Both the position numbers and the translations under genes were made by a program. A stretch of DNA of 64,000 nucleotides from an uncultured Bacteroidales bacterium (lineage in GTDB: Bacteria > Bacteroidota > Bacteroidia > Bacteroidales > GCA-2748055), in contig CAVWDQ010000023.1 of the NCBI GenBank assembly GCA_963753765.1, positions 136,586 through 200,585 on the forward strand, read 5' to 3'. Of this stretch, positions 14,094 through 60,653 are shown piece after piece (positions within the stretch are counted from its first letter, which is position 1; every line of letters begins with the position of its first letter). The notes beneath the pieces were generated by a model, which saw only the letters and a list, made by a program, of their open reading frames with translations, searched no databases and had not been told where the DNA came from.

Positions 14094-14124
14094 AAAGTTG
14101 CAATAGATTATAAAGCTTACAAGA

Positions 14125-34167: not shown

Positions 34168-34256
34168 ATGCAGGGTGTTTTTTTTAAAGATATAAATATT
34201 AGTCCAATCATTTTCGCCTTCCAAAACTTCGGAATTTGCTATATTCAGGGTGACAA

Positions 34257-40691: not shown

Positions 40692-43306
40692 ATGAAAAAT
40701 TTTAAGCTTCTTTCCATTTTTGGTCTGCTGTTCTTTCTCACAGCATGTAAGAGCCCTGAGCAAGCTGACTCGAATTATGAATATCCCTTCCAGAATCCTT
40801 CCCTGGATATTGATAAACGGGTGGATGACCTGGTGGGCCGCCTGAGCATCGATGAAAAAGCGAAACAGCTCTTTAACGAGGCACCGGCCATTGAACGACT
40901 TGGGATACCGAAATACAACTGGTGGAACGAGTGTCTTCATGGGGTGGCACGGGCCGGCAAGGCCACCGTCTTCCCCCAGGCCATTGGACTGGCAGCCACC
41001 TTTGATGAGGATCTGATGTTTCGGGTTGGCACGGCCATCTCGGATGAGGGAAGGGCCAAACATCACTACTTTGCCCGGAACGGAGCCAGAGGAATATACA
41101 TGGGACTTACCTACTGGTCGCCCAACATTAACATCTTCAGGGATCCCCGCTGGGGACGCGGACAGGAAACCTACGGGGAAGATCCCTATCTCACGGGCAG
41201 ACTGGCTGTTAATTTTGTGAATGGATTGCAGGGGGACCATCCCCAATACCTGAAATCCATTGCCACAGTAAAGCACTACGCGGTACACAGCGGGCCCGAG
41301 TTTACCCGTCATGTGGATAATATTTTTGTCAATGACCGTGACCTTTACGAGACCTACCTCCCAGCCTTTAAAATGGCCATCGAGGAGGCCAATGTACAGT
41401 CTGTCATGTGTGCCTATAACCGCTTCAGGGACCAGCCCTGTTGCGGATCAAACCTGCTTCTCGGTAAGATTCTGAGAGAAGAATTCGGATTTTCCGGATA
41501 CGTGGTCACCGATTGCGGTGCCATATCGGATTTTTATACGGAAGGGCATCACCTGGTGGTGGAAACTCCCGAGCAGGGCTGGGGATGGTCGCTGGCCACC
41601 GGTGCCGATCTGAATTGCGAAGAAAGCAGGGCCTTCCTGGAAAACATTGATTCTGCACTGCATGTGGGCATCATCAATGTAAAAGACATCAATACCTCCA
41701 TATCCCGTTTGTTCAAGGCAAGATTTCAACTGGGCTTCTTCGATCCGGAAGAAGACAATCCATATACCAGCATTCCCATGTCGGTGGTGGGATCGGAAGA
41801 GCATTTGAAGCTGAGCCTGGAAGCTGCTGAGAAATCGATGGTTCTTTTGAAGAACGATGGAATTCTGCCTCTGGATAAAAGCAAGAAGGTGGCCCTGATC
41901 GGTCCCAATGCCAACAACTTTGCCATCCTGATCGGCAATTATAATGGTGATCCCGTGGAGCCTGTTACTCCGCTGGATGGTTTCAGGGAAGTGCTCGGGG
42001 ACCAGGTGATATATACCCCTGGATCTCCACTGGCTCCCGGGATCTATTCCGATTACCGGCTCATCGGACCCGAAATGTTCTACCATTATTCGGAGGGCAA
42101 ACTGGAGCCCGGACTGCTGGGAACTTACTTCTCGAGTACTGATTTCAGCGGGGAAGCGGCTAAGGAGCAGATCGATCCTTCCATAGATTTCCGCTGGGAA
42201 TTCTCACCGGCTACAGAGGTAATGGATGAACCATTCTCGGTAAAATGGGAAGGAGTCCTGAGTACCTGAGCTGACAGGGGATTATCTTTTTGAAGGGAAT
42301 GTAAGTCTGACACTGGACAACAGGCCTGTGAGTGATCAAAGTTCATCTGGTGGCAGGTAAAGAATATAAACTGGAAGTAAAGCATGTTGCCAGGGCTTTC
42401 TGGTGGAGCAGCAATTACCAGCAGCAGTTTGCGAAACTAAGCTGGTTTGATACTTCCAGGGACCTGGAAGCAGAAGCCCTGAAAGCAGCCAGTGAGGCAG
42501 ATGTAATAATCTTTTGCGGAGGCATATCCTCCAACCTGGAAGGCGAGGAAATGCCCATCGAGACCGATGGTTTTGCTCATGGTGACAGGACCCATATTAA
42601 ACTTCCGGCGGTTCAGGAGGACCTATTGATGAAGCTTCATAAAACAGGTAAACCCGTTGTTTATGTCAACTTTAGCGGCAGCGCCATTGCACTGAACTGG
42701 CAGGAGGAAAATTTGCCGGCCATTATCCAGGCCTTCTATCCCGGCGAGGCCACCGGTCATGCGCTTACCCGGATCATCTATGGAGAGACCAATCCCTCCG
42801 GCAGATTGCCTGTCACCTTCTACAAATCCGTCGATGATTTGCCCGATTTCCTGGACTACCAGATGGAGGGCCGGACCTACCGTTACTTCCGGGGCGATCC
42901 ACTCTATGAATTTGGCTACGGACTCAGCTATACCCAATTCGAATACAGCAACCTGGTACTGCCTGATGAGGTAGAGATCGGAGAGTCAATTTCAGTTTCA
43001 GTGGAGGTGCGTAACTCGGGCAACAGGGATGGTCGCGAGGTGGTGCAACTATACATCAGCGACGAAGTGGCCAGTGTTCCTGTACCTCTAAGGGCCCTGG
43101 CTGGAATTCAGCCCATATTCCTGAAAGCCGGGGAGACCAGGACCGTATCCTTTGATATCGATCCGGATCAATTCTCCCTGATAGACGAGAACTACATACG
43201 GAAGGTGGAACCCGGAGAGTTTCTGATCTCAGTGGGAGGTTCCCAGCCAGATGAAGGGGCCATTGCCGAAGCTAAGGTGGTTACTGGAAGGGTAAAGGTC
43301 CGTTAG
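40692..43306 (+). pseudogene. GH3 beta-glucosidase/xylosidase with PA14 insertion, two frameshifts
   Basis: ORFs 40692-42269 (frame 0) and 42332-43306 (frame 2). GH3 motifs are NWWNECLHGV, FSGYVVTDCGAI and GETNPSGRLPVTFY...EFGYGLSYTQFEY. The intermediate frame reads VPELTGDYLFEGNVSLTLDNRPV (PA14). The shifts are near 42259 and 42331. Confidence 0.85.
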
Positions 43307-43600
43307 ATAGCCAATAAAGCACTTTCTATAAACTCCTTATCGGGATACCACCTGTAGATTATTGCCTTGTACGATCCAGCCTATGCATTTGCTTTTCATC
43401 TGTTCTCCTGGATACGCTATTTAGATTCATTGTAGAAACCATAGAAATCTTACTACAATGGCATTATATTTCCTAGAAAAGATTAATATGCGCCCTCAAA
43501 TTTTCAATCCATATATAGATTGTTCTAAGGGCAAAACTGCCTGGCGCAAAAGCTCCCCACTTAAATAAATAACTCCGAAATCATTTGAAAATCGTCTGAT

Positions 43601-44095
43601 ATGAAAATTGTTATTGTTATTGATAGCTGGAACAAAGGAAATGGTGGAGTTGTTGTAACCCACACCCTTGTGAAAGAATTGCAAGCGAGGGGGCATGAAA
43701 TTTCTCTAGTGACAACAGCGGGCATATCAGCCTCGGAATTCAAAGGTACGGTGCATGAAATTAAGGGTTTCTATCTTCCCGGGATCAAAGAATCGTTAGA
43801 GTATGGGATTTAAATTTGGCATAGGCCAGAAGAAGGTATTCCGAAATGCTTTTAAAGGGGCAGATCTTGTCCATGTGGTTTTCCCCTTTTTTATGTCAAG
43901 GAATGCGGCCTGGGTTGCCCGCAAATGAAGCTTCCCCTTATGGGAGCTGCCCATATTCAGTCCCAGAATCTGACTGGCGCCATGGGGAAAGATAATAAGA
44001 CCCTGGATTGGCTTTTCAATAATTGGTTCAACTTTCAACTTTTCAACAGGGCAAGTGCCATACATTATCCGTCCGATCTGGCAGCTGATATTCTG
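43601..44095 (+). pseudogene. remnant of a GT4-type glycosyltransferase (N-terminal roughly 165 codons only, two frameshifts)
   Basis: MKIVIVIDSWNKGNGGVVVTHTLVKELQARGHEISLV continues in other frames as FKFGIGQKKVFRNAFKGADLVHVVFPFFMSRNAAWVARK and then KLPLMGAAHIQSQNLTGAMGKD...AIHYPSDLAADIL. There is no C-terminal Rossmann domain, and the sequence runs directly into GH3-like sequence. Confidence 0.55.
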
Positions 44096-45163
44096 GATTC
44101 ATGCCCACCGGGTAGCAGCCGATGGAAAACATGCGGCCGAACTGGCTTTAAAGGCCGGAGTGAATATCGAATTGCCCAATCCCGACTGCTATCTGCATAT
44201 TGTAGCGCTGGTCAATGAAGGCCGAATTGCCGAAGGGTGCCGGATTACCATCGGGGGAAGCTGGATGGAAGATGAAGTGGTTTTCCCGGATCCGGAAGAG
44301 GAAAGGCAAAAAATTACCGAAGCGGTCAGAGTGGTAAGGGGGGCTGATGTGGTTATCCTTGTTGTGGGTGGAAACGAACAAACATCCAGAGAAGCCTGGA
44401 ACATTTATCATTTGGGCGATAGAAGCAGACTGGAACTTGTGGGTATGCAGAATGAACTGATTAATGCATTGCATGAAACAAGTAAGCCCATTGTCAGCTT
44501 AGTAATCAATGGACGACCCCTGGATCTTCGCAATCTCATAGACAAATCTTTGGCGGTCTTTTGAATGTTCGTACCCGAGTAGCAGAAAGACAGGAGAAGG
44601 GATGGACAACGCTTCTGTTTTCGTGTACAGACCCTATTTGGCAGGAAACTGCCCATATCCTTCCCACGTTCAGCCGGACACCTCGCGGTGTATTATAACC
44701 ACAAGCCTTCGGCCAGACGGGGTTTTTTCAATGTGGATATGAGCCCCCTCTGTACCCTTGCAGTTAAGGATTAAGCTACACCACCTTTGAAATGACCAAT
44801 TTGCAACTCGAAAAAAGGGAGAAGATCAGCCATCGGTCGGAGTCCGTCCGGGTGTACATCAATGTGCGCAATACAGGGACAAGGAAGGCGATGAGGTGGT
44901 GCAAATGTATATCCGTGATGAGCTGAGCACCGTCACCAGGCCTGTAAAGGAGTTAAAAGATTTTGCAATGATAACTCTTGAATCACAGCGGAGAAAACAG
45001 AGCCGTAGAGCTGGAGATCACCCCGGGACAAACTGAAATACTACGACATCCATATGGATTATGTCGTAGAAGCTTGGTCAATATCACCATCCTAGTCATG
45101 GGAACTGATGCTCCTGATAAGGATCTACAGGAAATCCGGCTTCTTGTAGAAGCAGATCATTGA
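44096..45163 (+). pseudogene. remnant of a second GH3 (BglX-like): N-terminus missing, internal deletion, many frameshifts and an in-frame stop
   Basis: HRVAADGKHAAELALKAGVNIELP...LVNEGRIAE jumps to AVRVVRGADVVILVVGGNEQTSREAW...GDRSRLELVGMQNELINAL...PIVSLVINGRPLD. Shattered pieces follow (GKLPISFPRS, PLYPCS*GLSYTTFE with TAA at 44765-44767, EVVQMYIRDELSTVTRPVKELKDF), ending at the stop 45161-45163. Confidence 0.7.
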
Positions 45164-45284
45164 ACCAGGGCTATACCCATTGCCTGTCTTGTATACCTTG
45201 TCACTATAAGTCAGAATTATTACTTTATGTTTCCATTTATAACCTTTTCAAGCTGATAAAAAAAGTCATTCAACGGTTGTTTAT

Positions 45285-45296
45285 TTAATCGATTAA
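45285..45296. promoter_or_regulatory. perfect 12-bp palindrome TTAATCGATTAA, candidate LacI-family operator
   Basis: Read directly from the sequence. It is centred on CG, as many LacI/GalR operators are, and lies 60-78 nt upstream of the possible starts of the LacI-type regulator gene. Confidence 0.35.
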
Positions 45297-45299
45297 GCA

Positions 45300-45307
45300 T
45301 ATATTTG
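45300..45307 (+). promoter_or_regulatory. candidate Bacteroidota -7 promoter element (TATATTTG, consensus TAnnTTTG)
   Basis: Exact match to TAnnTTTG, 49 nt upstream of ATG 45356 and 67 nt upstream of ATG 45374. It sits immediately 3' of the palindrome. Confidence 0.3.
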
Positions 45308-45373
45308 ATTTTATCAGGTTCGTAGCTTGACAAGAATACCTAAAAATGGTTCGAGATGCAGAGAAGGGCTTCA

Positions 45374-46354
45374 ATGAAGGATATAGCGAACAAGGTAGTA
45401 GTCTCCATTGCTCTGGTATCCTATGTATTGAATGGCCAGAAAGGAAAAAAGAGTCGGTGCAGAAGTAGTTAGAAAGATTAGAGAAGCAGCGGAAGAATTA
45501 AACTATCAGCCCAATCAGATTGCCCGAAGCTTGAGGATGAAATCGACCAAAACCATAGGATTGGTTGTAGCTGATATTGCCAACCCCTTTTTTGGACATC
45601 TTGCGCGAATCATTGAGAATGAAGCTAATAACTTTGGATATACAGTAATATTCGGCAGCTCAGATGAAGATGACTTTAAATCCGAGTCTGTGATCAACAC
45701 CCTGTTAAACAGACAGGTGGACGGATTTATTATTGTTCCAACAGAGGGCTCTCGCGAACAGATAAGAAGCCTAGTAAAGAAAAAGGTTCCACTTGTGCTA
45801 ATCGATAGATACTTCTCGGAACTTAATACCAACCATGTAGTCCTTGACAATTTTCAGGCAACCTATGAAGCAACATCGCACCTGATAAAAGAGGGATATA
45901 TTGACATTGCCATGGTTGCCTACAAAAACAGCCTGATTCATATGAAAGAACGGATCAGGGTTATAAAGAGGCCATGGCCGCTAACAAACTGAGCGAACAT
46001 ATCAAGGTCATTGAGATTAACTATGCCCTGTACAATGAAGAGTTTTCAGAGTTATTCAATGAACTGGATATTGAGACTCAAAATAGAAGCGCCTTCATTT
46101 TTGCCACCAACGCCCTGTCTCTTAGTGGGTTATACTGTATTAACAAGAAATGCCTTAAAATTCCTGAAGATTTTGCTTTCATAGGGTTTGATGGCGGCGA
46201 AAGCTTTGATTTGTTCAATCCTCCCCTGAGCTATGTAAAACAACCCCTCGAAGAAATGGGAAAAGAATCATTCAGCATTCTTATGAATGCCATCTCAGGG
46301 TCAAATAAAATCACTCAAATCATGCTTAGTCCTTCCTTGATTATCAGAGGGTAA
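45374..46354 (+). pseudogene. LacI family transcriptional regulator, two frameshifts
   Basis: The HTH reads MKDIANKVVVSIALVSYVLNGQKGK in frame 2. Frame 0 then reads RVGAEVVRKIREAAEELNYQPNQIARSL...IGLVVADIANPFF (shift at the A6 run 45445-45450). Frame 2 then reads GYKEAMAANKL...FIGFDGGESFDL (shift near 45955-45965). Confidence 0.8.
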
Positions 46355-46382
46355 AGTGGTGGTTAAATTTTTTTTCGTTTGC

Positions 46383-46394
46383 TTAAACGATTAT
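46383..46394. promoter_or_regulatory. degenerate copy (TTAAACGATTAT, 10 of 12) of the upstream palindrome, 25 nt before the fucI start
   Basis: Read directly from the sequence. It shares the central CGATTA with the 45285-45296 palindrome, and its position fits an operator for the fuc genes. Confidence 0.2.
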
Positions 46395-46418
46395 GCAAAA
46401 CATAAAAATAAATATATA

Positions 46419-48168
46419 ATGACGAACAGACTTATTGGCCGATTGCCAAAAGTGGGCATCAGCCCTGTAATTGATGGCCGTGAACATGGGATCAGGGAAT
46501 CCCTTGAGGAGCAGACAATGAAAATGGCTCAGGCTGCAGCCCAGCTCATTGAAAAAAATCTTAGTTTTCCCTCCGGTGAAAAGGTGACATGCGTAATTGC
46601 CGACAATAATATCGGTGGAGTTGCGGACGCAGCATTATGTTCCGTCCTGTTTGCCAGGGAAGGAGTAGGTGTTTCACTAACTGTAACTCCATGCTGGTGC
46701 TACGGTACTGAGGTAATGGATACTGACCCACTGATCCCAAAAGCCATTTGGGGATTTAACGGAACCGAGCGACCCGGGGCTGTTTACCTGGCTGCTGCAC
46801 TGGCAGGATATACTCAAAAAGGACTCCCTGCATTTGGAATTTACGGGAGGGATGTGCAGGATGCCGGGGACCATTCAATTCCTGAAGATGTGCAGGAAAA
46901 GATTCTACGATTTGTGAAGGCAGGTCTGGCCGTTGCCCAGATGAAAGGTAAATCATACCTCTCTCTGGGTTATACATCCATGGGTATTGTCGGTTCAATG
47001 GTGGATACCGATTTCTTCCAGGATTATCTGGGTATCCGAACCGAGTTTGTTGATATGCAGAGATTCTGAGAAGGATCGAATTAAGATCTATGACAAGGAG
47101 GAATATAGAAAGCCTGGGCTGGACAAAAGAGAATGCAAGGAAGGACCGATTGAACAAAAAACCGTCAGATCGAAAACGAAAGAATGGAATGGGAAATAGT
47201 CGTAAGATGACCCTGATTGCCGAGATCTGATGGTCGGGAATCCGAAGCTTTCAGCATAAGGGTTTGGTGAAGAGGCAGGGACGGAATGCGATTGCAGGAG
47301 GTTTCCAGGGACAGCGCCAGTGGACAGATTTCTATCCTAATGGAGATTTTACTGAAGCCATGCTGAATTCGTCATTTGATTGGAACGGGATCCGGGAAGC
47401 ATTCGTCTTTGCCACTGAGAATGACAGTCTGAATGCAGTGTCAATGCTATTTGGTCATTTGTTGACAAATACCGCCCAGATTTTTTCGGATGTACGAACA
47501 TACTGGAGTCCGGAATCCGTGAAAAGAGTATCGGGCCATGAGTTAGATGGAATGGCTCGAAGGATTTATCCATTATAAATTCCGGTTCAACCACTCTGGA
47601 TGCAACAGCACAACAAAGGGATGAAAGGTAATCCTGTGATGAAACCCTGCTGGGATATTCAACAGAAGGAAGTCGAAAAATGCCTTGAAAAAACCCGTGG
47701 TGCCCGGCAAACAAAGAGTATTTCAGGGGGGGGTTTTTCCTCTCAGTTTAAAACTGCTGGTCAAATGCCAGTACCATGTCCAGAGTTAACCTGGTTAAAG
47801 GTCTGGGGCCTGTCTTGCAGTTGGCTGAAGGATGGACCATTGAATTACCTGAGAAATTCATGCTATTCTGATGAACGTACAGATCCCACCTGGCCTACCA
47901 CCTGGTTTGTTCCCAGAACCGACAGGAAGGGCCATTCAGGGACGTCTATTCGGTGATGGCCAACTGGGGTGCCAACCACGGGGCCATCTCCTATGGGCAT
48001 ATTGGGGCAGATCTTATTACTCTTGCTTCGGCATTACGTATTCCTGTTTGCATGCATAACGTTGAAGCAGAATCAATTTTCAGGCCCAGCGCATGGAGTG
48101 CCTTTGGAAGCCATGAAAGCGCTGATTTCAGAGCCTGTAATAATTATGGACCGATTTATTCAATATGA
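46419..48168 (+). pseudogene. fucI: L-fucose isomerase, heavily disrupted (at least ten frame changes plus an in-frame TAA)
   Basis: The N-terminal 214 codons are intact ([26 protein letters not shown]...TVTPCWCYG...[17 protein letters not shown]). The rest is recoverable only by hopping frames ([103 protein letters not shown]). There is a TAA at 47257-47259. Confidence 0.9.
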
Positions 48169-48183
48169 TTGAAAACGATAGAA

Positions 48184-49413
48184 ATGATGAATGCAATCTC
48201 ATTCTTGAACCCGGCATGGGCAGTAACATATGCTCTATTCTTTATTCTGATGGGCTGTTCATCCTCAGGAAGTAAAAAGATAAGGCGAAATTCCTTTAAC
48301 AAAGGAAGTTACGGCTATGATGTGACTTCCTTTCCAGATACAAAATTGATTGTATTGAACTCAAGGATAAGGAAGCAGCGCACGCGTTTTAATTGTCCTG
48401 AATTCCAGGGAAGGGTCATGACAAGCAGTGCCAATGGAGAGGAGGAAAGAGTTTTGGCTGGATCAATTACTCCTATATCGAATCCGGAAAGAGGAATGAT
48501 CAATTTAATCCTTTTGGCGGGAAGAGCGACTATGGCTGGGCCCGGAAGGAGGGGTATTTTCCTTTATTTTGAACAGGGTGACGAACAGGTTTTTACCAAT
48601 GGCGGGTACCTAAAGAACTGATACAGAATCTTCGACTAATTCCCAGAACACCCATTCCATAAGCTTAAGAAAAGATTTTTCACTGGTCAATGCATCCGAA
48701 GCAAGCATGGAATCGGTCTTGAAGGAAGGTAAGTTTGATGAGTCCTGAAGATGTAAGAAATGCCCTGAATCTGATCATGGATGATTCGCTGAAGTGGTAG
48801 CCTATGAGTCGTATAATACTTTGATTAACCAGGGGAATCTAACTGGATGCACAAAGCGGTTTCCTGTCCCTGTGGTTACTCTCCATGTTTAATCCGTCCT
48901 CAGAAGGAGTCGTGTCATCCCGATCAGGATAGAAAATGAGAGTGAATTAGGCAACATAGTAAATGATGAATATTTTGGTAGAGTTCCTTCGGATCGCCTG
49001 AATACAAGACAATGCATTCTATTAAACCGATGGAGCACACGTAGCAAGATTCGGGTGTCTTCCAGAAGAGCTCTTCGATGGAGCCTGGCTTAGATCCCGA
49101 AAACAAGTTTGAGGTGCTATGGTATCCCAATCCGAGAAAGATGTACCCTACGTTAATTCTAAATGGGGATAAGGATGATCCTTTGGTCGGAGATGTGATC
49201 AACTCCACAACGATGGCCCAACTGAAGATGGATCTGTAATGGGACCCTTCTTTGAAATTGAGAGTTCATCTCCGGCAGCCATGCTTTCACCTGGTAACAG
49301 GCTTACCCACATCCAGCGTATTTTCCATTTTACCGGCAATGAAGATAAATCGAATGATATACCTGCACCTGGCCAATATATCCATTGATGATTTGAAAGG
49401 AGCATTTAAATAG
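48184..49413 (+). pseudogene. conserved hypothetical lipoprotein between fucI and fucP, many frameshifts
   Basis: ATG 48184 (MMNAISFLNPAWAVTYALFFILMGCSSS lipobox). Plus-strand pieces in all three frames carry protein-like segments (PEFQGRVMTSSANGEE, VPYVNSKWG, DKDDPLVGDVINS, NDGPTEDGSVMGPFFEIESSSPAAMLSPGNRLTHIQRIFHFTG, ISIDDLKGAFK, stop 49411-49413). The minus-strand ORFs here look like shadows. Confidence 0.45.
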
Positions 49414-49456
49414 GGCTCAAAACTGGAAATCCTGAAATGACTTTGTAGACCCCATC

Positions 49457-50886
49457 ATGGAGAAACAAGCAATTATCCCTAAGGGCATTGTGCTGCCTTT
49501 CATCCTTCTGTCCATCCTGTTTTTTGCATGGGCTGTGCCCAATAATCTGACAGACACCATGCTTGCAGCCTTTAAGCGAATCATGAGTTTATCTGATTCT
49601 AAAACGGCATGGATACAGGTAGCCTGCTACCTGCTTGGCTATGGGTGTTTTGCCATACCCGGGGCTATGTTTATTAAAAAGCATACCTATAAATCAGGGG
49701 TTTTGCTGGGCTGGGACTTTATAGTCTGGGTGCTTTTATGTTCTATCCTGCCATGCTTTTGTCTGAAGTAAACAACGCACATCAGTTTTTTAATGTTTCT
49801 TCTTGCTATCCTCGTACTTTTTGCCGGACTTTCTATTCTTGAAACCTCTACAAATTCCTACGTATGTGCCATCGGACCTGAACAAACAGCCACACAGCGC
49901 CTGAATTTTGCACAATCTTTCAATCCATTCGGGGCCATCACCGGAGTCGTAGTTAGCCAGGTATTTATCCTTTCCAGGCTTAACACTTTAACTGCCGTTG
50001 AGCGGGCGGCACTTCCAGCAGCTGAACTCACAAAAATTCAGGGTGTGGAATTACATGCAGTAAGCATGGCTTATATGACTCTAGTGCTGGTGATGTGCTT
50101 TCTTTTCCTGGCCATATTGTTCACCAAAATGCCCCCACTTAAGGAAGATGGAAGCAAAATTGATTTCAAGGGTACTTTCAAGCGACTGGCAAAAAACAGG
50201 AATTATGTCTGGGCTGTAATAGCTCAATTTTTATGGGTGGGAGCCCAGATAGCTGTATGGTCATTTATTATCAGGTATGCTATGCAACAGTTGCATCTGG
50301 ATGCAGTGTGATCTCCAGCCTGGGAGAACATCCATCTTCGGACCAAATTATTGCCAGTCTGCGTAATCTGTAAAATCTGCTGGCTGCAGGATTCTAGAAT
50401 TTTTGCGAATGGATTGGACTTGATGTGCTTCTACCGAGAACACCCGAACAGGCCGGAGCTACTTACTACATCATGTCTTTGCTATTGTTTGTACTTGGAC
50501 GATTCATTTGTACCGGACTTATGAATTTCTTCAAGCCTAAAAACCTTTTAACTGCCCTTGCCCTCCTGGCAGTGCTGTTATGTTTGATAACCATATATGG
50601 TCAGGGTCAGATTGGAATTTATGCCCTGATCGGAGTCTCAGGCTGCATGTCGCTGATGTTTCCCACCATCTACGGTCTGGGCATTGAAGGACTGGGAGAG
50701 GATACAAAAATGGGAGGAGCGGGAATGGTCATGGCCATTGCAGGTGCTGCATTTCTGACCCAGATTCAGGGGATCGTATCAGATCAGTCGGGGAATATTG
50801 AACTGGCCTATTGGGTACCAGCGATTGCATTTCTGATCATCACATACTACGCTGCTATTGTTAGCTGGAAAAAGAAAATTATATGA
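49457..50886 (+). pseudogene. fucP: L-fucose:H+ symporter (MFS), at least four frame disruptions
   Basis: Pieces are 49457-49771, an alternate-frame LGLYSLGAFMFYPAMLL, 49793-50311 (LETSTNSYVCAIGPEQTATQRLNFAQSFNPFGAITG, the FucP signature region) and 50425-50886 (GVSGCMSLMFPTIYGLGIEGLGEDTK). The last 460 nt are undisturbed. Confidence 0.8.
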
Positions 50887-52952
50887 AAGCCCTGAAATCC
50901 AATGTTCTGATTTTTGTTCTGTTTCTTTCCTTAACAGGGACAAGGTGCCAGTCGTCAAATACCGAAACACTATGGGACACATTTGGAGTGCCACACATTT
51001 TTGCTAAAACCACGGAAGAGATGTATGTGGCTTTTGCTGAGGCACAGATGCAGAATCATGCCAACCTCATTTTAAAACTTTACGGGCAGGCCCGTGGCCG
51101 GGCAGCTGAGTACTGGGGAGGCGAATACCTTGAATCTGACAAAAAAATCCAGCTATTCCAAATCCCGGATAAAGCTGCAAAGGTATATCAAGAACAGGGA
51201 AAAGAGTTCAAGGTTTACCTGGATGCCTTTGTGGCCGGTATCAATCGGTATGCTAGCAGGCACAGGGACCAGATCGAAGAACAATACCTTAAGGTACTTC
51301 CGGTGACCCCTGAGGATGTGATCGGACATACCTTACGCGTAACTTCTTTGGAATTTCTGGCTGCAGAAGACATTTACCTTGCCGGGAATGTCCTGCCCAA
51401 AGGATCCAATGCCTATGCCATTGCACCCTCTAAATCAGAAAGCGGAAACGCAATGCTGGTAATAAATCCCCACCTTCCGTGGTCTGATTTCTTCCTCTGG
51501 TTCGAATCTCATCTTAATTCACCTGGATTCAGCTCCTATGGCATCTCCCTTGTGGGCATGCCTTCCATGACCCTGGCATTCAATAATTTTCTTGGATGGG
51601 CTCACACGGTCAATCCCATTGATGCATCTGACAGGTACGAACTCACTTTACAGGATGAGGGATATATTCTGGATGGAAAGGTTTTTCCATTTGAGAAAAA
51701 GGAAGTAAGTCTGAAAGTGCTTCAGAGCGATGGGTCATATATCAATCAGAAGATAGAATTCAATTATTCAAAGCACGGACCCATTGTCGGACAAAACGAG
51801 AAAAATGCCTATGCAGTGCGCGTTGCAGGACTGGAAAACTCAGAAATTTTTCAACAGTATCATCTGATGGCCAGTGCAAGTAGCTTTCAGGAATTTGAAT
51901 CAGCCCTGAGGATGCTTCAGAATCCCATGTTTAATGTGATTTATGCTGACAGGGAAGGTAATATTTTCTATCTGTTCAACGGGAACATACCTGTTAGAAC
52001 GGAAGGGGATTTTGCTTTCTGGAAAGGCACTATTGATGGAACAGCTTCGAAATTCATATGGGATAATATCCATCCCTATGAAGATTTACCAAGGGTGCTG
52101 AACCCGCCTTCCGGATTTGTACAGAATTGTAACGATGCACCATGGACCTGTACCGATCCACCTGTATTACGTTCAGAGGATTTCCCTCCTTATTTTTCAA
52201 GTAAAGGAACTTTCCTGAGACCACAACGCGCTGTAAATATGGTTAGCAATAAACCTTCCATTAGCTTTCAGGACCTGATCACCACTAAACACAATACTGG
52301 AATGGAAGCAGCCGATCGTTTTTTAGATGATCTGCTAATGGCGGTAAATAATTTCCCGGATTCTTTAAGCCTTGAGGCAGCCAATGTTCTCAGGACCTGG
52401 GACCGGCAAACTGAAACAGACAGCAAAGGCGCCGTCCTGTTTGCCTTATGGTGGGACAGGGTACATGCATCCATGTTTGCAGAACCGTGGAACCCCGTTG
52501 AGCCCTTTAAGACTCCCAAAGGCCTCAGGGAAGAAGAGAAGGCCGTTGAATTGCTTGGGAAAGCTGCCAGCGAGATATTGAATCGCTATGGTTCCCTGGA
52601 TGTGTCCTGGGGGGAGGTATATCGCTTAAGGATAAATGACATCGATCTCCCGGCCAACGGCGGTCCCGGTGATTACGGCATATTCAGGACCCTCTACTTC
52701 GCCGAAGACAAGGACCATAAGAAAAGGGCCATAGCCGGAGAGACATTCGTGGCAGTGGTAGAATTCGGCGAGAAAGTGCATGCAGAGGTGCTTCTGGGCT
52801 ATGGGAATGCCACCCAGCCAGGGAATCCACATAGCGGTGATCAGCTGGACATGCTGTCCGAGAAAAAGTTGCGACCTGCTCTACTGACAAAAAAAGAGAT
52901 ACTCCCCTTCCTTGAAAAAAGTGAAATGCTTTATACACATGGAGAAGAATAA
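50883..52952 (+). CDS. penicillin acylase (Ntn-hydrolase, S45) family protein, AHL/aculeacin-acylase-like
   Basis: Intact 689-aa ORF with a signal peptide. It has WDTFGVPHIFA at the alpha-chain start, the GSNAYAI nucleophile context followed by INPHLPW, and a typical C-terminal beta chain. ATG 50883 overlaps the fucP stop (ATGA). Confidence 0.85.
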   Translation: MKALKSNVLIFVLFLSLTGTRCQSSNTETLWDTFGVPHIFAKTTEEMYVAFAEAQMQNHANLILKLYGQARGRAAEYWGGEYLESDKKIQLFQIPDKAAKVYQEQGKEFKVYLDAFVAGINRYASRHRDQIEEQYLKVLPVTPEDVIGHTLRVTSLEFLAAEDIYLAGNVLPKGSNAYAIAPSKSESGNAMLVINPHLPWSDFFLWFESHLNSPGFSSYGISLVGMPSMTLAFNNFLGWAHTVNPIDASDRYELTLQDEGYILDGKVFPFEKKEVSLKVLQSDGSYINQKIEFNYSKHGPIVGQNEKNAYAVRVAGLENSEIFQQYHLMASASSFQEFESALRMLQNPMFNVIYADREGNIFYLFNGNIPVRTEGDFAFWKGTIDGTASKFIWDNIHPYEDLPRVLNPPSGFVQNCNDAPWTCTDPPVLRSEDFPPYFSSKGTFLRPQRAVNMVSNKPSISFQDLITTKHNTGMEAADRFLDDLLMAVNNFPDSLSLEAANVLRTWDRQTETDSKGAVLFALWWDRVHASMFAEPWNPVEPFKTPKGLREEEKAVELLGKAASEILNRYGSLDVSWGEVYRLRINDIDLPANGGPGDYGIFRTLYFAEDKDHKKRAIAGETFVAVVEFGEKVHAEVLLGYGNATQPGNPHSGDQLDMLSEKKLRPALLTKKEILPFLEKSEMLYTHGEE

Positions 52953-52975
52953 TCCCACAATCAATACCTAAAACA

Positions 52976-55900
52976 ATGAGAAAAAAGAACAGACCCTTGT
53001 TAAGTTGCATGATTACCAATCACCTTCCCACCCTCTTTTTCATTTTGTTTTTCAACGGATTTATCGCACTTCCCGCCCTGGCAGATAAGGGTATATCTGC
53101 TGCTGCACAGGTACATACTGTAAGCGGAACGGTGCTCGATGCCGCAGACGGGTCCCCCCTGCTCGGTGTGAATATCAGTGTGAAAGGGACCACCATCGGA
53201 ACCATCTCTGATCCAAATGGCCACTATTCCATAGATGCACCCGGTGAGGATGCCATCATATCCTTTTCCTATGTGGGCTACCTGAGCCAGGAGATCGCTG
53301 TAAATGGAAGGACAGTCATTGATGTACAATTGGAGGTAGATGCTCAAACCTTTGAAGAGTTGGTGGTTATCGGTTATGGCACCCAGAAAAAAATCAACCT
53401 TTCCGGAGCAGTGGACGTAGTCAACGCCAAAGCCATCGAAAACCGCCCGGTATCCAATGTGAGTCAGGCACTTCAGGGGCTCTCTCCCAACCTGAATATC
53501 ACGGTGGGTGCTGATGGCGGAGAAGTTGGAGCCAGAATGAATATGAATATACGGGGCCTGGGATCCATCAACGGAGGAGAACCCTATGTTCTGGTTGATG
53601 GGATTGAACAGGACCTCTATAAAGTGAATCCGGCCGATATCGAAAGCATTTCTGTATTAAAAGATGCAGCTGCCTCGGCTATTTACGGCGCCAGAGCTGC
53701 CTTTGGGGTGGTACTGGTGACCACCAAAAAGGGTAGAAAGGATGGCATATCGGTAAATTATTCAAACAACTTTCCTTTCCCGCGCCAACCATCGTCCCTC
53801 ACTCGGTCAATTCATTCCGTTTTGCAGAGTACTTCAATGCAGCATGCAGGGACTCAGAAGTCCCGCTGATGTTTCGCCCGGTGATTATCGAGAATATGGA
53901 AAAGTATCAGGGGTGAAATTGATTACTGGACAATTCCTGCTCCTTTTAACCCACAGGTTGGCTAAGCTAAATGGTGCCTGGGCAAATACGGACTGGTATA
54001 AGGAATCCTATAAACAATGGGTTCCGAATAACATACACAATGTCAGTGTCAGCGGGGGAAATCAAAAAACACAGTTTTATATTTCCGGTTCCACTTACAA
54101 CCAGGAAGGATTGCTCGTGTATGGTCACGATAGTCATACAGAAATACCATAAATACCAAAGTAAATTCCATGGTATATGACTGGCTGCGATTTAATTTAT
54201 CAAGCAAATTCAGCCGGACCAAATTTCGCGTCCGAGCTATGAAAAGGAATATTCTATTATAGCCTAGCCAGCCAATGGCCCACCAATGCTCCCTATTATC
54301 CAGATGGAAACCTGTCAGGAGAAGCGACTCAGATCTGGCTGGAGCAGGGCGGGATGTACGATCAAGACCAAAATGAATATATCATGGTTCCTGGGGTAGA
54401 GATCGAACCCTTTAAAGGATGGACCATATACGCGAACTACAGATGGAAAATGAATCCCTCAGGGTACACCAACCATGAAGCAAAAGTTTACGGAACAAAT
54501 GCTTATGGCCCACCACTTCTTGAGTCGGGAACAATTGCTATAACATGTCATTCTATGCAAGCACGTACAGTTCTCCCAACATATATTCGACCTACCAGAG
54601 ACAAATTCGGAACTCACAATTTACTGTCATGGCAGGATATGAACAGGAATTGTATAAAGACAACTGGAATCTGCCAGGTATGACCTGGTCAGCGATGAGG
54701 TTCCTTCGATCCCGACAGCCACCGGCAAAGAAGAAACTGACGAGGGATGGGTCATTATTCCACAAGGAGCTTCTTTGGCCGGATGAATTATAGCTTCAAC
54801 GACAAATACCTGTTGGAGGTATCAGGGAGCTATGATGGTTCTTCACGATTCCCAGACATATCGCTAGGGCATATTCCCTCAGGATCGGCAGCTTATATTA
54901 TTTCAAAGGAGGATTACTGGAGTCCCATTTAAAAGGTAGTAAATATGTTGAAGGTAAGGGCATCTTTTGGCTCGTTAGGGAACCAGGATGTGGAAAATTA
55001 CCTCTATGTAGAACGATTGCCCTTCTTACCAATTCTTCCCTATGATCATGGAAGACGGATTGCCAAATTATGTACAGATGGCCGGGTTCATAAGTCCGGG
55101 AATTACCTGGGAAAAGGTAAGGACTTCCAACATCGGATTGATGTAGGATTCTTAAAGAACCGACTCAATGTTTCTTTTGACTATTTCATTCGCAATACAC
55201 TGGACATGCTCGGTCCTGCAGAATCTTATCCTGTGGTATTGGGAACTGAAGTCCCAAAATCGAACAATGCCAATTTAAGAACGACCGGATTTGAAGTGGT
55301 GATGGAATGGCGGGACCGGATACAGGACTTTTCCTATTCAGCCAAATTCTTGCTGGCCGATGCCACTCAACCATTACCAGTTACTACAATCCACAGAAAC
55401 TACTTAGCGGCGCTTTCTATGAAGGAGCCAAACTGGGAGAGATCTGGGGATATACAACCGTGGGTTTGTTTGAATCTGATGAACAGGCCCAGGATCCGTC
55501 ACACAATCAATCCTATTTGTCACCTGAAGTCTGGAGGGCGGGTGATGTACATTATGAGGATATCAATCAAGATGGTAAAATCGACATAGGTACCAATACG
55601 GTAGACAATCCGGGGGACCTCTCAATAATCGGGAACTCAAGCCCCAGATATACCTTCAGTGCAATTCTAGGTGCATCCTGGAAGGGATTTGATTTTAATA
55701 TGCTCTGGCAGGGGGTGGGAAAAGACAGCTTGCCCTGGACGGGTCGCTCTTCTGGGGCATCGTGGGGAACAAGTGGTGGAATATTGGTCTGGAGGAACAC
55801 ATGGATTATTGGACAGAAGAGAATACAGACGCCTACTGGGCACGTCCTTATTTTGCAAACGGGGAAGATAAAAATCATCAGACCCAAACCCGGTATCTGC

Positions 55901-56136
55901 AAAATGGTGCTTACCTCAGACTGAAATCACTGCAGCTCGGATACACATTGCCCATCAGCCTGACACAAAAAGTAAAAATCCAAAATCTGAGGATCTACCT
56001 GTCGGGAGAGAACCTGCTCACATTTACAAAACTTATTTCTGTTTTTGATCCCGAACTTACCGGTGGCTTATACGGCAGCGGAACGATGTATCCACTACAG
56101 AAAGTTCTTTCGGTGGGCCTGAATGTGACATTTTAA
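52976..56136 (+). pseudogene. susC: SusC/RagA-type TonB-dependent receptor, shattered into about ten ORF pieces
   Basis: The first roughly 800 nt are intact: carboxypeptidase-regulatory-like domain (VSGTVLDAADGSPLLGVNISVKGTTIGTISDPNGHYSI) and plug (VVIGYGTQKK, IESISVLKDAAASAIYGARAAFGVVLVTTKKG). From about 53780 the sequence hops frames, up to the C-terminus YLQNGAYLRLKSLQLGYTLP...VGLNVTF at 56136. The total length is normal (about 1053 codons). Confidence 0.85.
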
Positions 56137-56155
56137 ATCTGTAAACTGAACGATC

Positions 56156-57903
56156 ATGAGAAGATATATATACATTCCGTTTATTTGTTTATTATTCTGT
56201 GCGTTTCCTGCTCCGAAGACTTTCTTGAACGTTACCCCCTGGATGAATTGTCTCCCAATGAATTTTTCACAACTCCAAACGATTTGAAGTTATATGCCAA
56301 CAGCTTCTATACTCTCTTACCCTCCCATTCCGGTTATGGGGGTGGGACATTTTGGTCAGAAGGAACAGTGACAACCTGGTTCCTACTGTGCCGGATATGC
56401 GACTTTCAGGTATTAGGACCATTCCTTCCAGTGGAGGGGGATGGGAATGGGGCAATATACGACAGGCAAATTATTTCCTGGATCACTGTTACGATCAGCT
56501 GACCGATACCCTGGATGCAGTAATTTACATTGCCGAAGTGAAATTCTTTAAAGCATTCATCTATTTTGATTTGCTGAAAAACTTTGGGGATCTACCGTGG
56601 TTCACCCAGCCCTGGATACAGAATCGCCCGAACTATTCTCTCCCCGGCAGAGCAGATCTGTAATGGTGGATTCCATCGTCGCGTGTCTTGATGGTGCCAT
56701 TAACCCGGCCTTAAGTAGGGAGGAATCTGAACCCTTCCGGATCAATAAAGAATGTGCCATCCTTCTAAAGGCCAGGGTATGCCTCTATGAAGGTACCTGG
56801 GAAAAATACCATCAGGGAACCGGTTTTGGCGTTTCCGGAAAAGATGGTACTGATTTTCTTGCCCTGGCCGCACTGCGGCGGAAACTGATGCAGTTGGGAA
56901 CGGCAGGTCTGGATAATTCCAGCCCTGCGAATACGGCATATTGGTCCTTATTTAACCAATTGGATTATCCTGGGAATCCGGAGGTATTGTTGTGGAAAAA
57001 ATACGATGTAGGACTCGAGGTCACGTATAATCTGGGCCAGTACCTGCCAAATGCCGGTGGGGATATAGGGATCACCAAAAGTATAGCTGATAGTTACTTG
57101 TGTACAGACGGTCAACCTATCTCCACCAGTTCCCTCTTCGGAGGATACGATTCTCTTCGCTGGAGGTTCAGAACCGTGATCCGCGAATGGCTCAAACCAT
57201 TTTTCTTCCGGGTGATCTTCGAACCATCAACCGTCCCTGTGGCGGCGAAGACCTGAATTTGACAAGCCGCCCATTGACGGTGTAGGCCAATGGCGAGCTA
57301 CTACAGGCTATTGTATGTACAAGGGGGTCAACATCGAATATGCCCAGCAGGAGAGTGTGGGTTGGATGGGATCCATCGTATTCCGTTATGCTGAGGTTTT
57401 ATTGATTTATGCGGAGGCGGCGGAACTGGGCAGCATCACCCAGGGAGATCTGGACAATTCTGTAAATATTTTGCGTGACCGGGTTGGAATGGTTCACCTG
57501 GACCTGGGCAATATAACCGTTGATCCCGATTGGGAATAACCAGCTCACTCCCCGGTGATCAATGAGATCAGACGTGAAAGACGTGTTGAACTGGCATTCG
57601 AAAATGCACGTTGGGATGACCTGGCACGCTGGAGGGCCCATCACCTCATCGAAAACCAGCGACCATTGGAATTAAGTACATCGGGTCAAACCTGGAAGGG
57701 AAATACTTTGATATCGATGGAGCGGAGACCAAGCATTATTATCGGAGAAAACCTGTATGTGGAGCGGATGGATATCTAGATCCTTACCAAATATCCTACC
57801 CGATGGATTCGCATTAATCCGGAAAGAGATTACCTGTCCCCTATCCCAAGCGATGAACTGACTGTTTAATTCTGCTCTTCGCAGGGAAAATCCCGGATGG
57901 TGA
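56156..57903 (+). pseudogene. susD: SusD/RagB family nutrient-binding lipoprotein, at least six frame disruptions
   Basis: MRRYIYIPFI, then in another frame LFIILCVSCSEDFLERYPLDELSPNEFF (lipobox plus the SusD start). Later pieces are IRQANYFLDHC, YIAEVKFFKAFIYFDLLKNFGDLPW, FRYAEVLLIYAEAAAEL, INEIRRERRVELAFENARWDDLARW and RDYLSPIPSDELTV. The final frame reads NSALRRENPGW with the stop at 57901-57903. Confidence 0.8.
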
Positions 57904-57935
57904 GAGTTGGAAGAATGGATAGGGGTAACAAGTGC

Positions 57936-59592
57936 ATGAATGAAAGCAGGGCATTGCTTTTAAACTGTGCATTGGGTTTGTGTTGTCTGTTTTTAGGAAG
58001 TAGTTGTGAGAAAAGGGTAAGCCTTGATCACTTTGATTTCAGATATGCACGACCGGGATATACTGAGTTACTTCCCAGAACAGGAATACAGACATCAACA
58101 GTTCAGCAGTTATAACCGTGCCTCCGTTGCGCCGGATGGGGAAGGGTGGTTTGAGAATTTCGACATGTCCCACTTAATGGGGTCGAAACCCATCAGGGAA
58201 GAAGAGAATCTTTTTGCTTGATGCAGAAGGTCCCGGTGCCATAGTGAGATGGTGGATGACTTTTTACAAGGCCCAGCATGGAAAATTGAGGGTCTATATG
58301 GATCATGATACCATTCCTGTAAAGAAGGTGCTCCCGATGAACTTCTTAGCGGCCCCCGACTTGCCTTGCCCCCCCTGGCCGTCTCAGTTCAGGAAGGGGC
58401 CCCTCTGGGTGAAGAAGGCAGGGATTATGACCATAATTTTTATGTCCCCTGCCTTTTGCCATTCACTGCAAAGTGACCTATGAAAACGATTCCATTGTGC
58501 TGCTTCATCAGCTGGAAGGCACTTACATCGAGGAAGGATATTATTGGCCCGATGTTTTTTACAACATCGGTTGCAGACTCTACAAAAAACCTGTTGAGGT
58601 GGTTTCAGTTAGCCGAAAAGCCCTTCCAAAGCCAGGTCAAAATTGGAAGAAGCAGGAAGAATGCTGGAAGATCACCGGGTAGAAACAATGGTCGAAAAAG
58701 AGTTTAACCAGGTCCTTTACCCGGGTGATTCGGATTGTTTCCGTTCATAGAAAAACGGCCGTCAGTCAATTAAAGATGGAACTGGAGGCCATAGATATGG
58801 CTCAGGCCCTGCGTTCCGTGGTGCTAAAGGCTTCTTTTGACGGATACCAGACATCTGGGCCCCCGTGGGAGATTTTTTCGGAACAGGTTATAGCCTAAAT
58901 CCCCATCAAAGCTGGATGAACCATAGAGACGAAAAGGGAAGTATGGAGTCATTATGGCTCATGCCATTTAGGGATTCCTGTCGGCTGGTAATCAAAAATC
59001 ACAGTGAATTTCCTGTAAGTTTGAAAGGTAGCGTCGGACTTAAATCCTACAGATGGTCCTCGGGAAGCATGTATTTCGGTACGTCCTGGCACGAATATCA
59101 CCAGATCCAAGCAGAGATAAGAAGGGACTCCCTTCGATTTGAATTTCGTTAATATCAAAGGGAAAGGAGTATATGTTGGGATCGGATCACCCTGTATAAT
59201 AGTACCTATCAATGGTGGGGAGAAGGAGATGAGAAAATATTTGTGGACGGGGAAGCATTTCCTTCCAGTTTTGGGACGGGTTCAGAGGATTACTATGGAT
59301 ATTCTTTTGCAAGACCCCAAGCCTTTTCGCATCCTTTTATTTGCCAGCCGGAAGGAACAGGAAATACCAGACGGGGCCTGACAGTTAATATGCGCCATCG
59401 CTCCCTGGATGCCATTCCATTCCATTCTTCGATCAGCTCAAACATTGAAATGTGGCACTGGGCAAATGTGCCCGTCAATATAGCGCTTACCGCATACTGG
59501 TATGTAAAGGTTCCCTTCGAAGTTAATCTCAATCCCGACATAGAGTCGGTTCAACTACCTGTGCCAGAGCTAACCAAAGATTTGGAGAATGA
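57936..59592 (+). pseudogene. DUF2961 (GH172 family) protein copy, at least seven frame disruptions
   Basis: ATG 57936 (MNESRALLLNCALGLCCLFLGSSC). The pieces are EYRHQQFSSYNR, DAEGPGAIVRWWMTF, GDFFGTGYSL, MPFRDSCRLVIKN, GEGDEKIFVDGEAFPSSFGTGSEDYYGYSF and IEMWHW...TAYWY. They parallel the intact paralog at 60625-62733. One frame stops at the TGA 59590-59592 overlapping the next ATG, and another reads through to 59683. Confidence 0.7.
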
Positions 59593-60653
59593 AGCAGATG
59601 ATTGCAATATTTTCATTTTTAGTCTTCGTTGCAATGCTGTCATCTTTCGGCTGCAAAAGGGAAGAATTATTCTACAATGCTGAAGATTTTGAAACAATTG
59701 AAAAAATTGATGCTCATTTTCACTATCTCACCCTGGATGATCGCTACATGAAATTTGCTCTTTCACAGAATTTCAAAATACTAACTCCCAATTGGGATGG
59801 AGAGTATTCCATCGACGAACAATTGCACATTGCACATACCATCTGGTCAGCCTACCAGGGGGAGTTTGCCTTCTTCGGTACATTCTCAGTGGATGGATTT
59901 GGGAAGCATGATTTCGCGACTAAAACCATTTCCCGAATCGACAGCTGCCTGCAGGCAGGTGCCAGGGGAATCAAGATCTGGAAGAATATCGGCATGGTGC
60001 TTCAGGATTCATCCGGCAGGTTCGTGATGGTGGATGACCCGGCCTTTGAACCGGTGTTTAATTACCTGGAATCAAATCAGATCCCGGTCATGGCACATCT
60101 TGGCGAACCAAAGGATTGCTGGATGCCGGAAGAGGAAATGACCAACCCGTCGAATGCATATTATTACCGTAACCATCCTCAATACCATATGTACATGCAC
60201 CCCGAGGTACCCTCGTACGAAGAGCAAATTCAGGCAAGAGACAATCTGTTGGAAAAACACCCGGAGCTTGATTTTATCGGGGCTCACCTGGGCAGCCTTG
60301 AATGGAGTACAGACGAATTGGCCAAACGATTTGAAAAATATCCAAATCTCAAAGTCGATTTGTCAGCCCGAATGTACCATCTGCAAAACCAGTCAGAAAT
60401 TAATCGGGAAAAAGTCCGTGATTTCCTGATCAAATACCAGGACAGGATAATGTATGGCACAGACAATGAGGTGCATGATGTGCCAGAATCGGATCTACCC
60501 ATAAAGCTGGAACAAATACGAAATGGCTGGAACTCACACTGGATTTATTTATGTACCGACTCTACGCTGAAGGTAAAAGGTTTGCAGCTTCCTCGTGAAG
60601 TCATTGATAAAATATATTATAAGAATGCGGAAAAATACTTTAGACTGCCTTAG
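59589..60653 (+). CDS. amidohydrolase-2-like metal-dependent hydrolase (TIM barrel), lipoprotein
   Basis: Intact 354-aa ORF with a signal/lipobox (LSSFGC). It has IDAHFHY, GARGIKIWKNIGM, VMAHLGEP, IGAHLGS and MYGTDN, a pattern typical of PF04909-type amidohydrolases. Confidence 0.7.
   Translation: MKQMIAIFSFLVFVAMLSSFGCKREELFYNAEDFETIEKIDAHFHYLTLDDRYMKFALSQNFKILTPNWDGEYSIDEQLHIAHTIWSAYQGEFAFFGTFSVDGFGKHDFATKTISRIDSCLQAGARGIKIWKNIGMVLQDSSGRFVMVDDPAFEPVFNYLESNQIPVMAHLGEPKDCWMPEEEMTNPSNAYYYRNHPQYHMYMHPEVPSYEEQIQARDNLLEKHPELDFIGAHLGSLEWSTDELAKRFEKYPNLKVDLSARMYHLQNQSEINREKVRDFLIKYQDRIMYGTDNEVHDVPESDLPIKLEQIRNGWNSHWIYLCTDSTLKVKGLQLPREVIDKIYYKNAEKYFRLP

Follow-up and report, generated by a model that had tools for sequence, protein, structure and literature searches.

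Reading-frame damage in a fucose and glycan utilisation cluster of an uncultured Bacteroidales bacterium: very probably a consensus artefact of long-read metagenome assembly

The locus and its relatives

The 64,000-nt stretch of DNA analysed here (the window) lies on contig CAVWDQ010000023.1 of an uncultured Bacteroidales bacterium, and between 43307 and 59592 on its + strand the genes of a fucose and glycan utilisation cluster are, with a single exception, broken in frame. The cluster runs in the order LacI, fucI, DUF6786, fucP, acylase, SusC/SusD, GH172, amidohydrolase and GH172. The acylase is the sole full-length frame in the damaged interval, a claim of the initial annotation of this DNA with which the lists of open reading frames (ORFs) agree, and the other genes of the interval are reduced to pieces of 50-297 aa with changing frames. 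The gene identities had been read from peptide motifs, and they are matched by Pfam profiles: an N-terminal GT4 fragment, a GH3_C fragment (44055-44564), LacI in two pieces, the N1 and N2 pieces of fucI, DUF6786 and penicillin amidase. The sequence has no N and an ordinary number of homopolymers, and scans of the window with Rfam and for tRNAs found no RNA elements. It is suggested here, from sequence comparison, that the frame damage is very probably an artefact of the consensus in a long-read metagenome assembly and has no biology behind it.

Two relatives of the locus were compared with the window. The first, L011 (ENA ERZ25039514, contig_27334, 43.5 kb), belongs to an independent metagenome assembly, taken to be of the same organism, and was found by exact-protein look-up with the acylase, which is identical to that of the window; a 405-aa window protein also has an exact match on this contig in the same kind of look-up. 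The second, L006, is contig CAWCAK010000010.1 of the metagenome-assembled genome (MAG) MFD03804.bin.2.1 and came out of a scan for the acylase in species-representative genomes. Collinearity with the window extends over 40931-62903 for L011 and, at 84.9% nucleotide identity, over 45260-62898 for L006. In L011 the counterpart of each broken gene is read as one continuous ORF, at lengths of 337-1060 aa, and the fragmentation in the window is therefore not due to chance. None of the window lesions in LacI, fucI, DUF6786, fucP, susC, susD or GH172a is reproduced in L011, which holds all of these genes intact, and this was the outcome of the look at sister genomes that the initial annotation had proposed. 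Gene spans in the window are 1-3% below the L011 lengths, in keeping with the near-normal gene lengths noted before. The genes are given below with the length of the intact L011 product in brackets.

45356..46366, + strand: LacI-family regulator (337 aa); 2-base deletion at ~45440 and 1-base deletion at ~45957, otherwise ~99% identical to L011
46419..48168, + strand: L-fucose isomerase fucI (592 aa); clean yet diverged as far as 47055; beyond it 29 deleted bases, and a nonsense codon at 47257
48184..49413, + strand: DUF6786 lipoprotein (422 aa); 39 deleted bases, the densest patch, with ~3% of positions affected
49457..50886, + strand: MFS fucose permease fucP (474 aa); 12.5% diverged from L011, nonsense codon at 50395, only ~4 indel events (-1, +1, +2, +3)
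50883..52952, + strand: penicillin-amidase-family acylase, 689 aa (689 aa); intact, DNA 100% identical to L011
52976..56136, + strand: SusC-like TonB-dependent transporter (1060 aa); equal to L011 without any difference up to 53584 and diverged beyond; 25 deleted and 3 inserted bases, 2 nonsense codons
56156..57903, + strand: SusD-like lipoprotein (586 aa); 21 deleted and 8 inserted bases, 1 nonsense codon
57897..59592, + strand: GH172 (DUF2961) copy a (569 aa); 15 deleted bases, 1 inserted base
59589..62733, + strand: Amidohydrolase_2 (354 aa) and GH172 copy b (702 aa); intact, 5 substitutions against L011, then 0 after 59939

The L011 region encodes the domains Plug, TonB_dep_Rec_b-barrel and SusD_RagB next to GH172, GH3 and LacI, and so qualifies as a polysaccharide utilisation locus (PUL). 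To judge from this intact copy, the cluster beneath the damage serves fucose and glycan utilisation and is functional.

The more distant relative gives a similar picture for part of the cluster. In L006 fucI (592 aa), DUF6786 and fucP are intact, and the acylase and susC/susD are broken; the breaks are private one-base insertions of its own (at 10704 and ~13000-17100), at sites other than those of the window lesions. Measured against L006 the window lacks one base at 102 sites and two bases at 19, compared with 14 and 2 in the opposite direction, and the substitution divergence between the two is even, at ~13%, in damaged and clean bins.

Lesions and substitutions in the diverged blocks

Alignment to L011 divides the window into blocks of very unequal identity, listed here with their substitutions and indel bases.

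40931-43350: 4.0% substitutions; 2 bases deleted, 1 inserted
43351-44540: 0 substitutions; 1 base deleted
44541-45160: 3.9% substitutions; 31 bases inserted, 5 deleted
45161-46350: 0.8% substitutions; 8 bases deleted
46351-47055: 8.8% substitutions; 0 indel bases
47056-49430: 6.7% substitutions; 69 bases deleted
49431-50650: 12.5% substitutions; 1 base deleted, 6 inserted
50651-53560: 0 substitutions; 0 indel bases
53561-59560: 14.2% substitutions; 60 bases deleted, 12 inserted
59561-62903: 5 substitutions; 1 base deleted

Blocks diverged at 7-14% of sites alternate abruptly with blocks of zero difference, and it is the diverged blocks that carry nearly all of the deletions. The runs free of any difference extend over 50640-53584 (2944 bp) and 59939-62903 (2964 bp). 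Three clean runs had been proposed from the reading frames, and the indel-free runs measured against L011 (45957-47057, 50378-53772, and 59586-62903 or further) match them almost exactly. A further argument had been that the acylase lies in a clean run which disregards gene boundaries, so that selection on the acylase does not explain this run. The argument is right, and the run is now accounted for: 50640-53584 is exactly the block common to both assemblies without differences. Most of the proposed dense patches were recovered in the comparison with L006, at 47058-47277, 47557-47923, 48279-49422 and 53773-59177; the patch at 49.7-50.4 kb was not, holding only ~4 events which, though sparse, break fucP. 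The mosaic may have arisen either by homologous recombination of the fucI-fucP and susC-GH172 alleles between strains or by haplotype switching of the assembler.

Lesions were counted in two dense stretches, 47056-49430 and 53.6-59.6 kb, and their privacy was judged in a three-way alignment of the window, L011 and L006. These stretches contain 112 deletion events, of which 98 removed one base, 11 two bases and 3 three bases, and 9 insertions, a ratio of ~12:1, and the earlier description of the lesions as dominated by indels is thus upheld. The reading frame is broken by 97% of the deletions, and no indel in coding sequence is larger than 3 bases. These lesions belong to the window alone: in the three-way alignment 132 bases are missing from it only, and 0 from L011 only. 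At the 100-bp scale the deletions are over-dispersed (index of dispersion 1.5-1.8). The deleted bases are also biased towards pyrimidines on the + strand, with 60 C/T and 38 A/G over 47056-49430 and 53700-59560, and this bias might reflect strand-biased read support.

The sequence context of the deletions is unremarkable. Single-base deletions fall in runs of length 1 in 57% of cases, compared with 48% for the background, and in runs of at least 4 in 11%. As this run-length context equals the per-base background, the deletions are not products of repeat slippage, and homopolymer miscalling is ruled out as their cause on the same grounds. The missing homopolymer signal points instead to a consensus of low depth or of mixed haplotypes. 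An association of deletions with neighbouring single-nucleotide polymorphisms was also considered and set aside, with 17 deletions observed within 1 base of one and 25 expected, a slight depletion to which the aligner contributes by absorbing some mismatches into gaps, an effect gauged by the simulation described below. Transition/transversion spectra gave no discriminating signal.

When the deletions are placed on codons a bias does become visible. Third codon positions account for 52 of 100 single-base coding deletions (test against a uniform distribution, p = 0.0003). Random deletions simulated on the gap-filled window sequence and passed through the same aligner gave 39.8 +/- 4.0% at third positions, with a maximum of 49% over 60 runs. 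Since the simulation itself yields ~40%, the excess is in part a matter of how the aligner places gaps, and a residue of ~3 standard deviations (SD) remains. This residue fits the dropping of bases at strain-variable sites. A consensus caller that drops bases where reads disagree would yield such a pattern, whereas mutation or random read error would not.

Substitutions were assigned to codon positions in the dense segments using frames taken from the intact L011 genes, with gap-adjacent columns left out. Those private to the window number 124/70/309 at positions 1/2/3, those private to L011 71/37/212 (chi-square p = 0.36), and those of the L006 lineage 110/78/308; third positions take a fraction of 0.614 in the window and 0.637 in the reference lineages. 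Synonymous to nonsynonymous counts are likewise similar whether or not the window enters the comparison.

susC: window against L011, 215:92; L011 against L006, 233:98
susD: window against L011, 139:74; L011 against L006, 156:79
fucI: window against L011, 92:42; L011 against L006, 131:41

The substitutions of the window thus carry the signature of purifying selection. Even codon positions and a ratio of nonsynonymous to synonymous rates (dN/dS) approaching 1, as relaxed selection would produce, are not what is seen, and neutral decay is unsupported because the third-position bias and the synonymous to nonsynonymous ratios of the window-private substitutions are normal. The position-uniform, or unconstrained, component comes to ~38 of 503 window-private substitutions (95% confidence interval 0-120), beside 121 indel events, so that there is at least ~1 indel per neutral substitution. 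Spontaneous mutation in bacteria produces ~1 small indel per 10 substitutions, and most small indels arise in repeats. Comparing the numbers of indels and substitutions, with intact orthologs as the reference, had been suggested at the outset as a way of separating decay from error, and the result favours an artefact.

Substitutions have also produced 5-6 in-frame nonsense codons (47257, 50395, 54865, 54930 and 57537, and 46352), and the small uniform component accounts, on this estimate, for these as well. Several of them stand where 2-3 neighbouring positions mismatch both relatives, and such clusters look like consensus noise of the substitution type. A further patch of a different kind occupies 44559-45160, where a segment otherwise identical to L011 has 31 inserted and 5 deleted bases and 24 substitutions in 620 bp. 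This insertion-rich noise, opposite in sign to the damage elsewhere, resembles a nearly raw read.

Weighing the explanations

That a locally poor consensus is to be preferred to a decayed locus had already been proposed in the initial annotation, and the intact sister genes, the privacy of the lesions, their spectrum and the selection signal all speak for it. The damage would be an artefact because an independent assembly keeps the genes intact and because the one-base deletions are private and lie on DNA that looks selected. Under this explanation the window contig would follow a strain haplotype which alternates, relative to L011, between shared blocks and blocks diverged by 7-14%. In the shared blocks deep and homogeneous read support would have given a perfect consensus, while in the divergent blocks 47.06-49.43 and 53.6-59.6 kb support may have been thin, or the reads a pile-up of mixed haplotypes. 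The caller would then have lost single bases at 1-3% of positions and added a few substitution errors, and at 44.56-45.16 kb insertion noise like that of a raw read would have been left in the consensus. The platform was most likely Nanopore-only with light polishing. Related MFD MAGs, which come from soils of high microdiversity, were assembled from Nanopore reads only by metaFlye followed by a single round of Medaka (PMC12313526), and a near-finished consensus from R10.4 reads requires ~40-fold coverage (PMC9262707). As to the exact cause, it could be thin coverage, a mixed-haplotype pile-up or the windowing of the polisher.

Several observations weigh against this explanation. The artefact is inferred from sequence comparison. 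Two stretches, 46351-47055 (8.8%) and 49431-50650 (12.5%), are diverged yet nearly free of deletions; divergence alone is therefore no predictor of damage, and a model of low coverage needs an extra assumption. The indels are not concentrated in homopolymers, which would be the classical Nanopore signature, and nonsense substitutions would be expected from real decay too. In addition, searches of the protein collections with frame-corrected SusC and fucI queries yielded no intact copy of the divergent alleles of the window, the nearest matches being at 89% for fucI (in the L006 cluster) and 90.7% for SusC (the L011 copy). What is shown is consequently that the lesions are absent from relatives, rather than from other copies of the same allele.

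A related possibility, which we hold only tentatively, is that the contig is a chimera or a collapse of haplotypes, the assembler path having switched between two co-occurring strains so that in the divergent blocks the consensus blends both, and this blend has produced the damage and some of the apparent divergence. The abrupt mosaic would be accounted for in this way, and so would the enrichment of deletions at third, strain-variable positions. The window also has more private substitutions than L011 in the three-way alignment (686 and 422, respectively), and its SusC is an outlier, with ~88-91% identity to cluster members that are themselves mutually 95-99.7% identical. However, homologous recombination between strains yields the same mosaic, the window-private substitutions are clearly real alleles under selection rather than blend noise, and L011 crosses every junction collinearly, so that the gene order is not chimeric. 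This possibility is, moreover, a sub-case of the consensus artefact rather than a true rival to it.

Genuine recent pseudogenisation, in which the fucose and PUL genes would have been inactivated by many small deletions and would now be decaying neutrally, appears very improbable. It has in its favour that all genes but one are broken, by frameshifts together with the nonsense codons, and that bacterial mutation is biased towards deletions. The failure to find an intact copy of the window allele in the protein collections is also consistent with it, and the adjoining GT4 and GH3_C remnants, common to the window and L011, point to a neighbourhood with a history of decay. Against this, the window-private substitutions keep the pattern of an intact lineage, with an unconstrained component too small for the number of indels. 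Deletions of 1-2 bases make up 97% of the total and neither larger deletions nor insertion sequences occur. Real small indels arise mainly by slippage, while those of the window have no association with homopolymers or repeats, and their preference for third codon positions is a property that no mutational process could detect. The clean runs, furthermore, match the zero-difference blocks of another assembly and not genes, and the noise at 44.56-45.16 kb is of the opposite sign.

A variant in which the deletions are real, as a recent and localised burst of single-base deletions restricted to segments recombined from a lineage diverged by 7-14%, deserves very little credence; if true, it would imply a mutagenic or silencing process, unknown so far, aimed at imported DNA. 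Programmed or regulatory changes of frame (phase variation, ribosomal frameshifting or transcriptional slippage) restoring expression can be given practically no weight and are ruled out by how many lesions there are and where they lie, since nothing speaks for them specifically beyond the conserved gene lengths and order, more than 100 shifts across six genes would be involved, these do not fall at homopolymers, simple repeats or slippery motifs, and L011 needs no such mechanism.

Remnants, wider damage and known systems

The initial annotation had treated all loci of the interval other than the acylase as one class of damage. This is correct from LacI to GH172a, but it does not extend to the GT4 and GH3 remnants, which L011 shares. 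Three features at the left edge of the interval are concerned.

40692..43306, + strand: GH3 beta-glucosidase (871 aa in L011), left of the damaged interval; split into ORFs of 525 aa and 324 aa, with a 1-base insertion at ~42263 and a 2-base deletion at ~42337 in the alignment to L011
43601..43813, + strand: N-terminal GT4 fragment of 70 aa; weak PF13439 match, 0 differences from the L011 ORF
44055..45163, + strand: remnant of the C-terminal part (GH3_C and Fn3-like) of a second GH3 paralog, from Pfam and tblastn; in the window the noise at 44559-45160 lies over it

The remnant of the second GH3 paralog, which is truncated at the N-terminus and has 35% identity to the adjoining GH3, reads by tblastn as a single 273-aa frame in L011 and is spread over two in the window. 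Because L011 shares both the GT4 fragment and the C-terminal GH3 remnant, these are genuine, and on the present sequence evidence they alone behave like real pseudogenes. At 43.3 kb the GC content falls from ~0.50 to ~0.45. A chimeric join at this step was considered and rejected, as L011 shows the same step and spans it collinearly. The step, the GT4 fragment and the truncated GH3 coincide within 43307-45163, and all three are present in L011. This segment is a genuine scar, left perhaps by an old rearrangement or marking an insertion boundary of the glycan locus.

Frame damage is not limited to the interval, as had been supposed, for the GH3 gene at 40692-43306 and GH92, GH106 and GH31 genes outside it are also split. 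In the GH3 gene, positions 1-59 and 59-200 of the GH3_C profile are divided between the two ORFs, and around its break at 42263-42337 the substitutions against L011 are clustered, at 22 per 200 bp. The GH92, GH106 and GH31 genes consist of two ORFs each which continue the same or adjoining Pfam profiles, and an apiosidase-like ORF begins only at position 87 of its profile. Split or shortened genes were seen at 5999-8249 (- strand), 31341-34308 (- strand), 36039-37683 (+ strand) and 25108-26124 (+ strand), and the left 43 kb is otherwise clean, which suggests a background of ~1 frameshift per 10 kb there.

The biological weight of these results is small, as the locus would be ordinary and functional in the population. 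For quality control they matter more: annotation of this record would yield ~9 false pseudogenes, and these could be mistaken for reductive evolution or for the loss of a PUL. Frame damage in long-read MAGs can, on this reading, gather in strain-variable blocks without a homopolymer signature, and comparison with a sister assembly can decide between artefact and decay without reads. Three measures decided the case here: whether indels are private, how substitutions are biased over codon positions, and how many indels there are per neutral substitution.

In its gene content the locus resembles the PULs and fucose modules of Bacteroidota, having SusC/SusD with GH172, GH3, GH116, LacI, fucI and fucP, intact in L011, and nothing unusual has been established for the window copy. 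Bacterial pseudogene decay offers a likeness in the many adjacent genes with frameshifts, stops and a deletion bias. The window differs from it in that selection is not relaxed in the substitutions, indels at least equal neutral substitutions in number, events are of 1-3 bases only and lesions are not shared with relatives.

Closer parallels are found in the indel errors of Nanopore-only MAGs, known from fragmented gene calls and the IDEEL test. As in those genomes, mostly one-base indels private to one assembly fragment otherwise normal genes, and background frameshifts occur elsewhere on the contig; a Nanopore-only pipeline of Flye and Medaka lies behind the related MAGs (PMC12313526), and consensus quality is known to depend on coverage (PMC9262707). 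Such errors are classically placed in homopolymers, whereas the deletions of the window have background run lengths, and the window also differs in the extreme local density of its lesions, at 1-3% of positions, and in their confinement to strain-divergent blocks. These last properties are reminiscent of the degradation of consensus by strain microdiversity, where bubbles in the assembly have been collapsed. Mixed read support in the window is here presumed from the comparison, and two divergent stretches are clean. The likeness extends, nevertheless, to errors that lie where the window departs from an otherwise difference-free L011, to the enrichment of deletions at variable third codon positions, and to the damage which L006 shows in the same susC/susD region at other sites.

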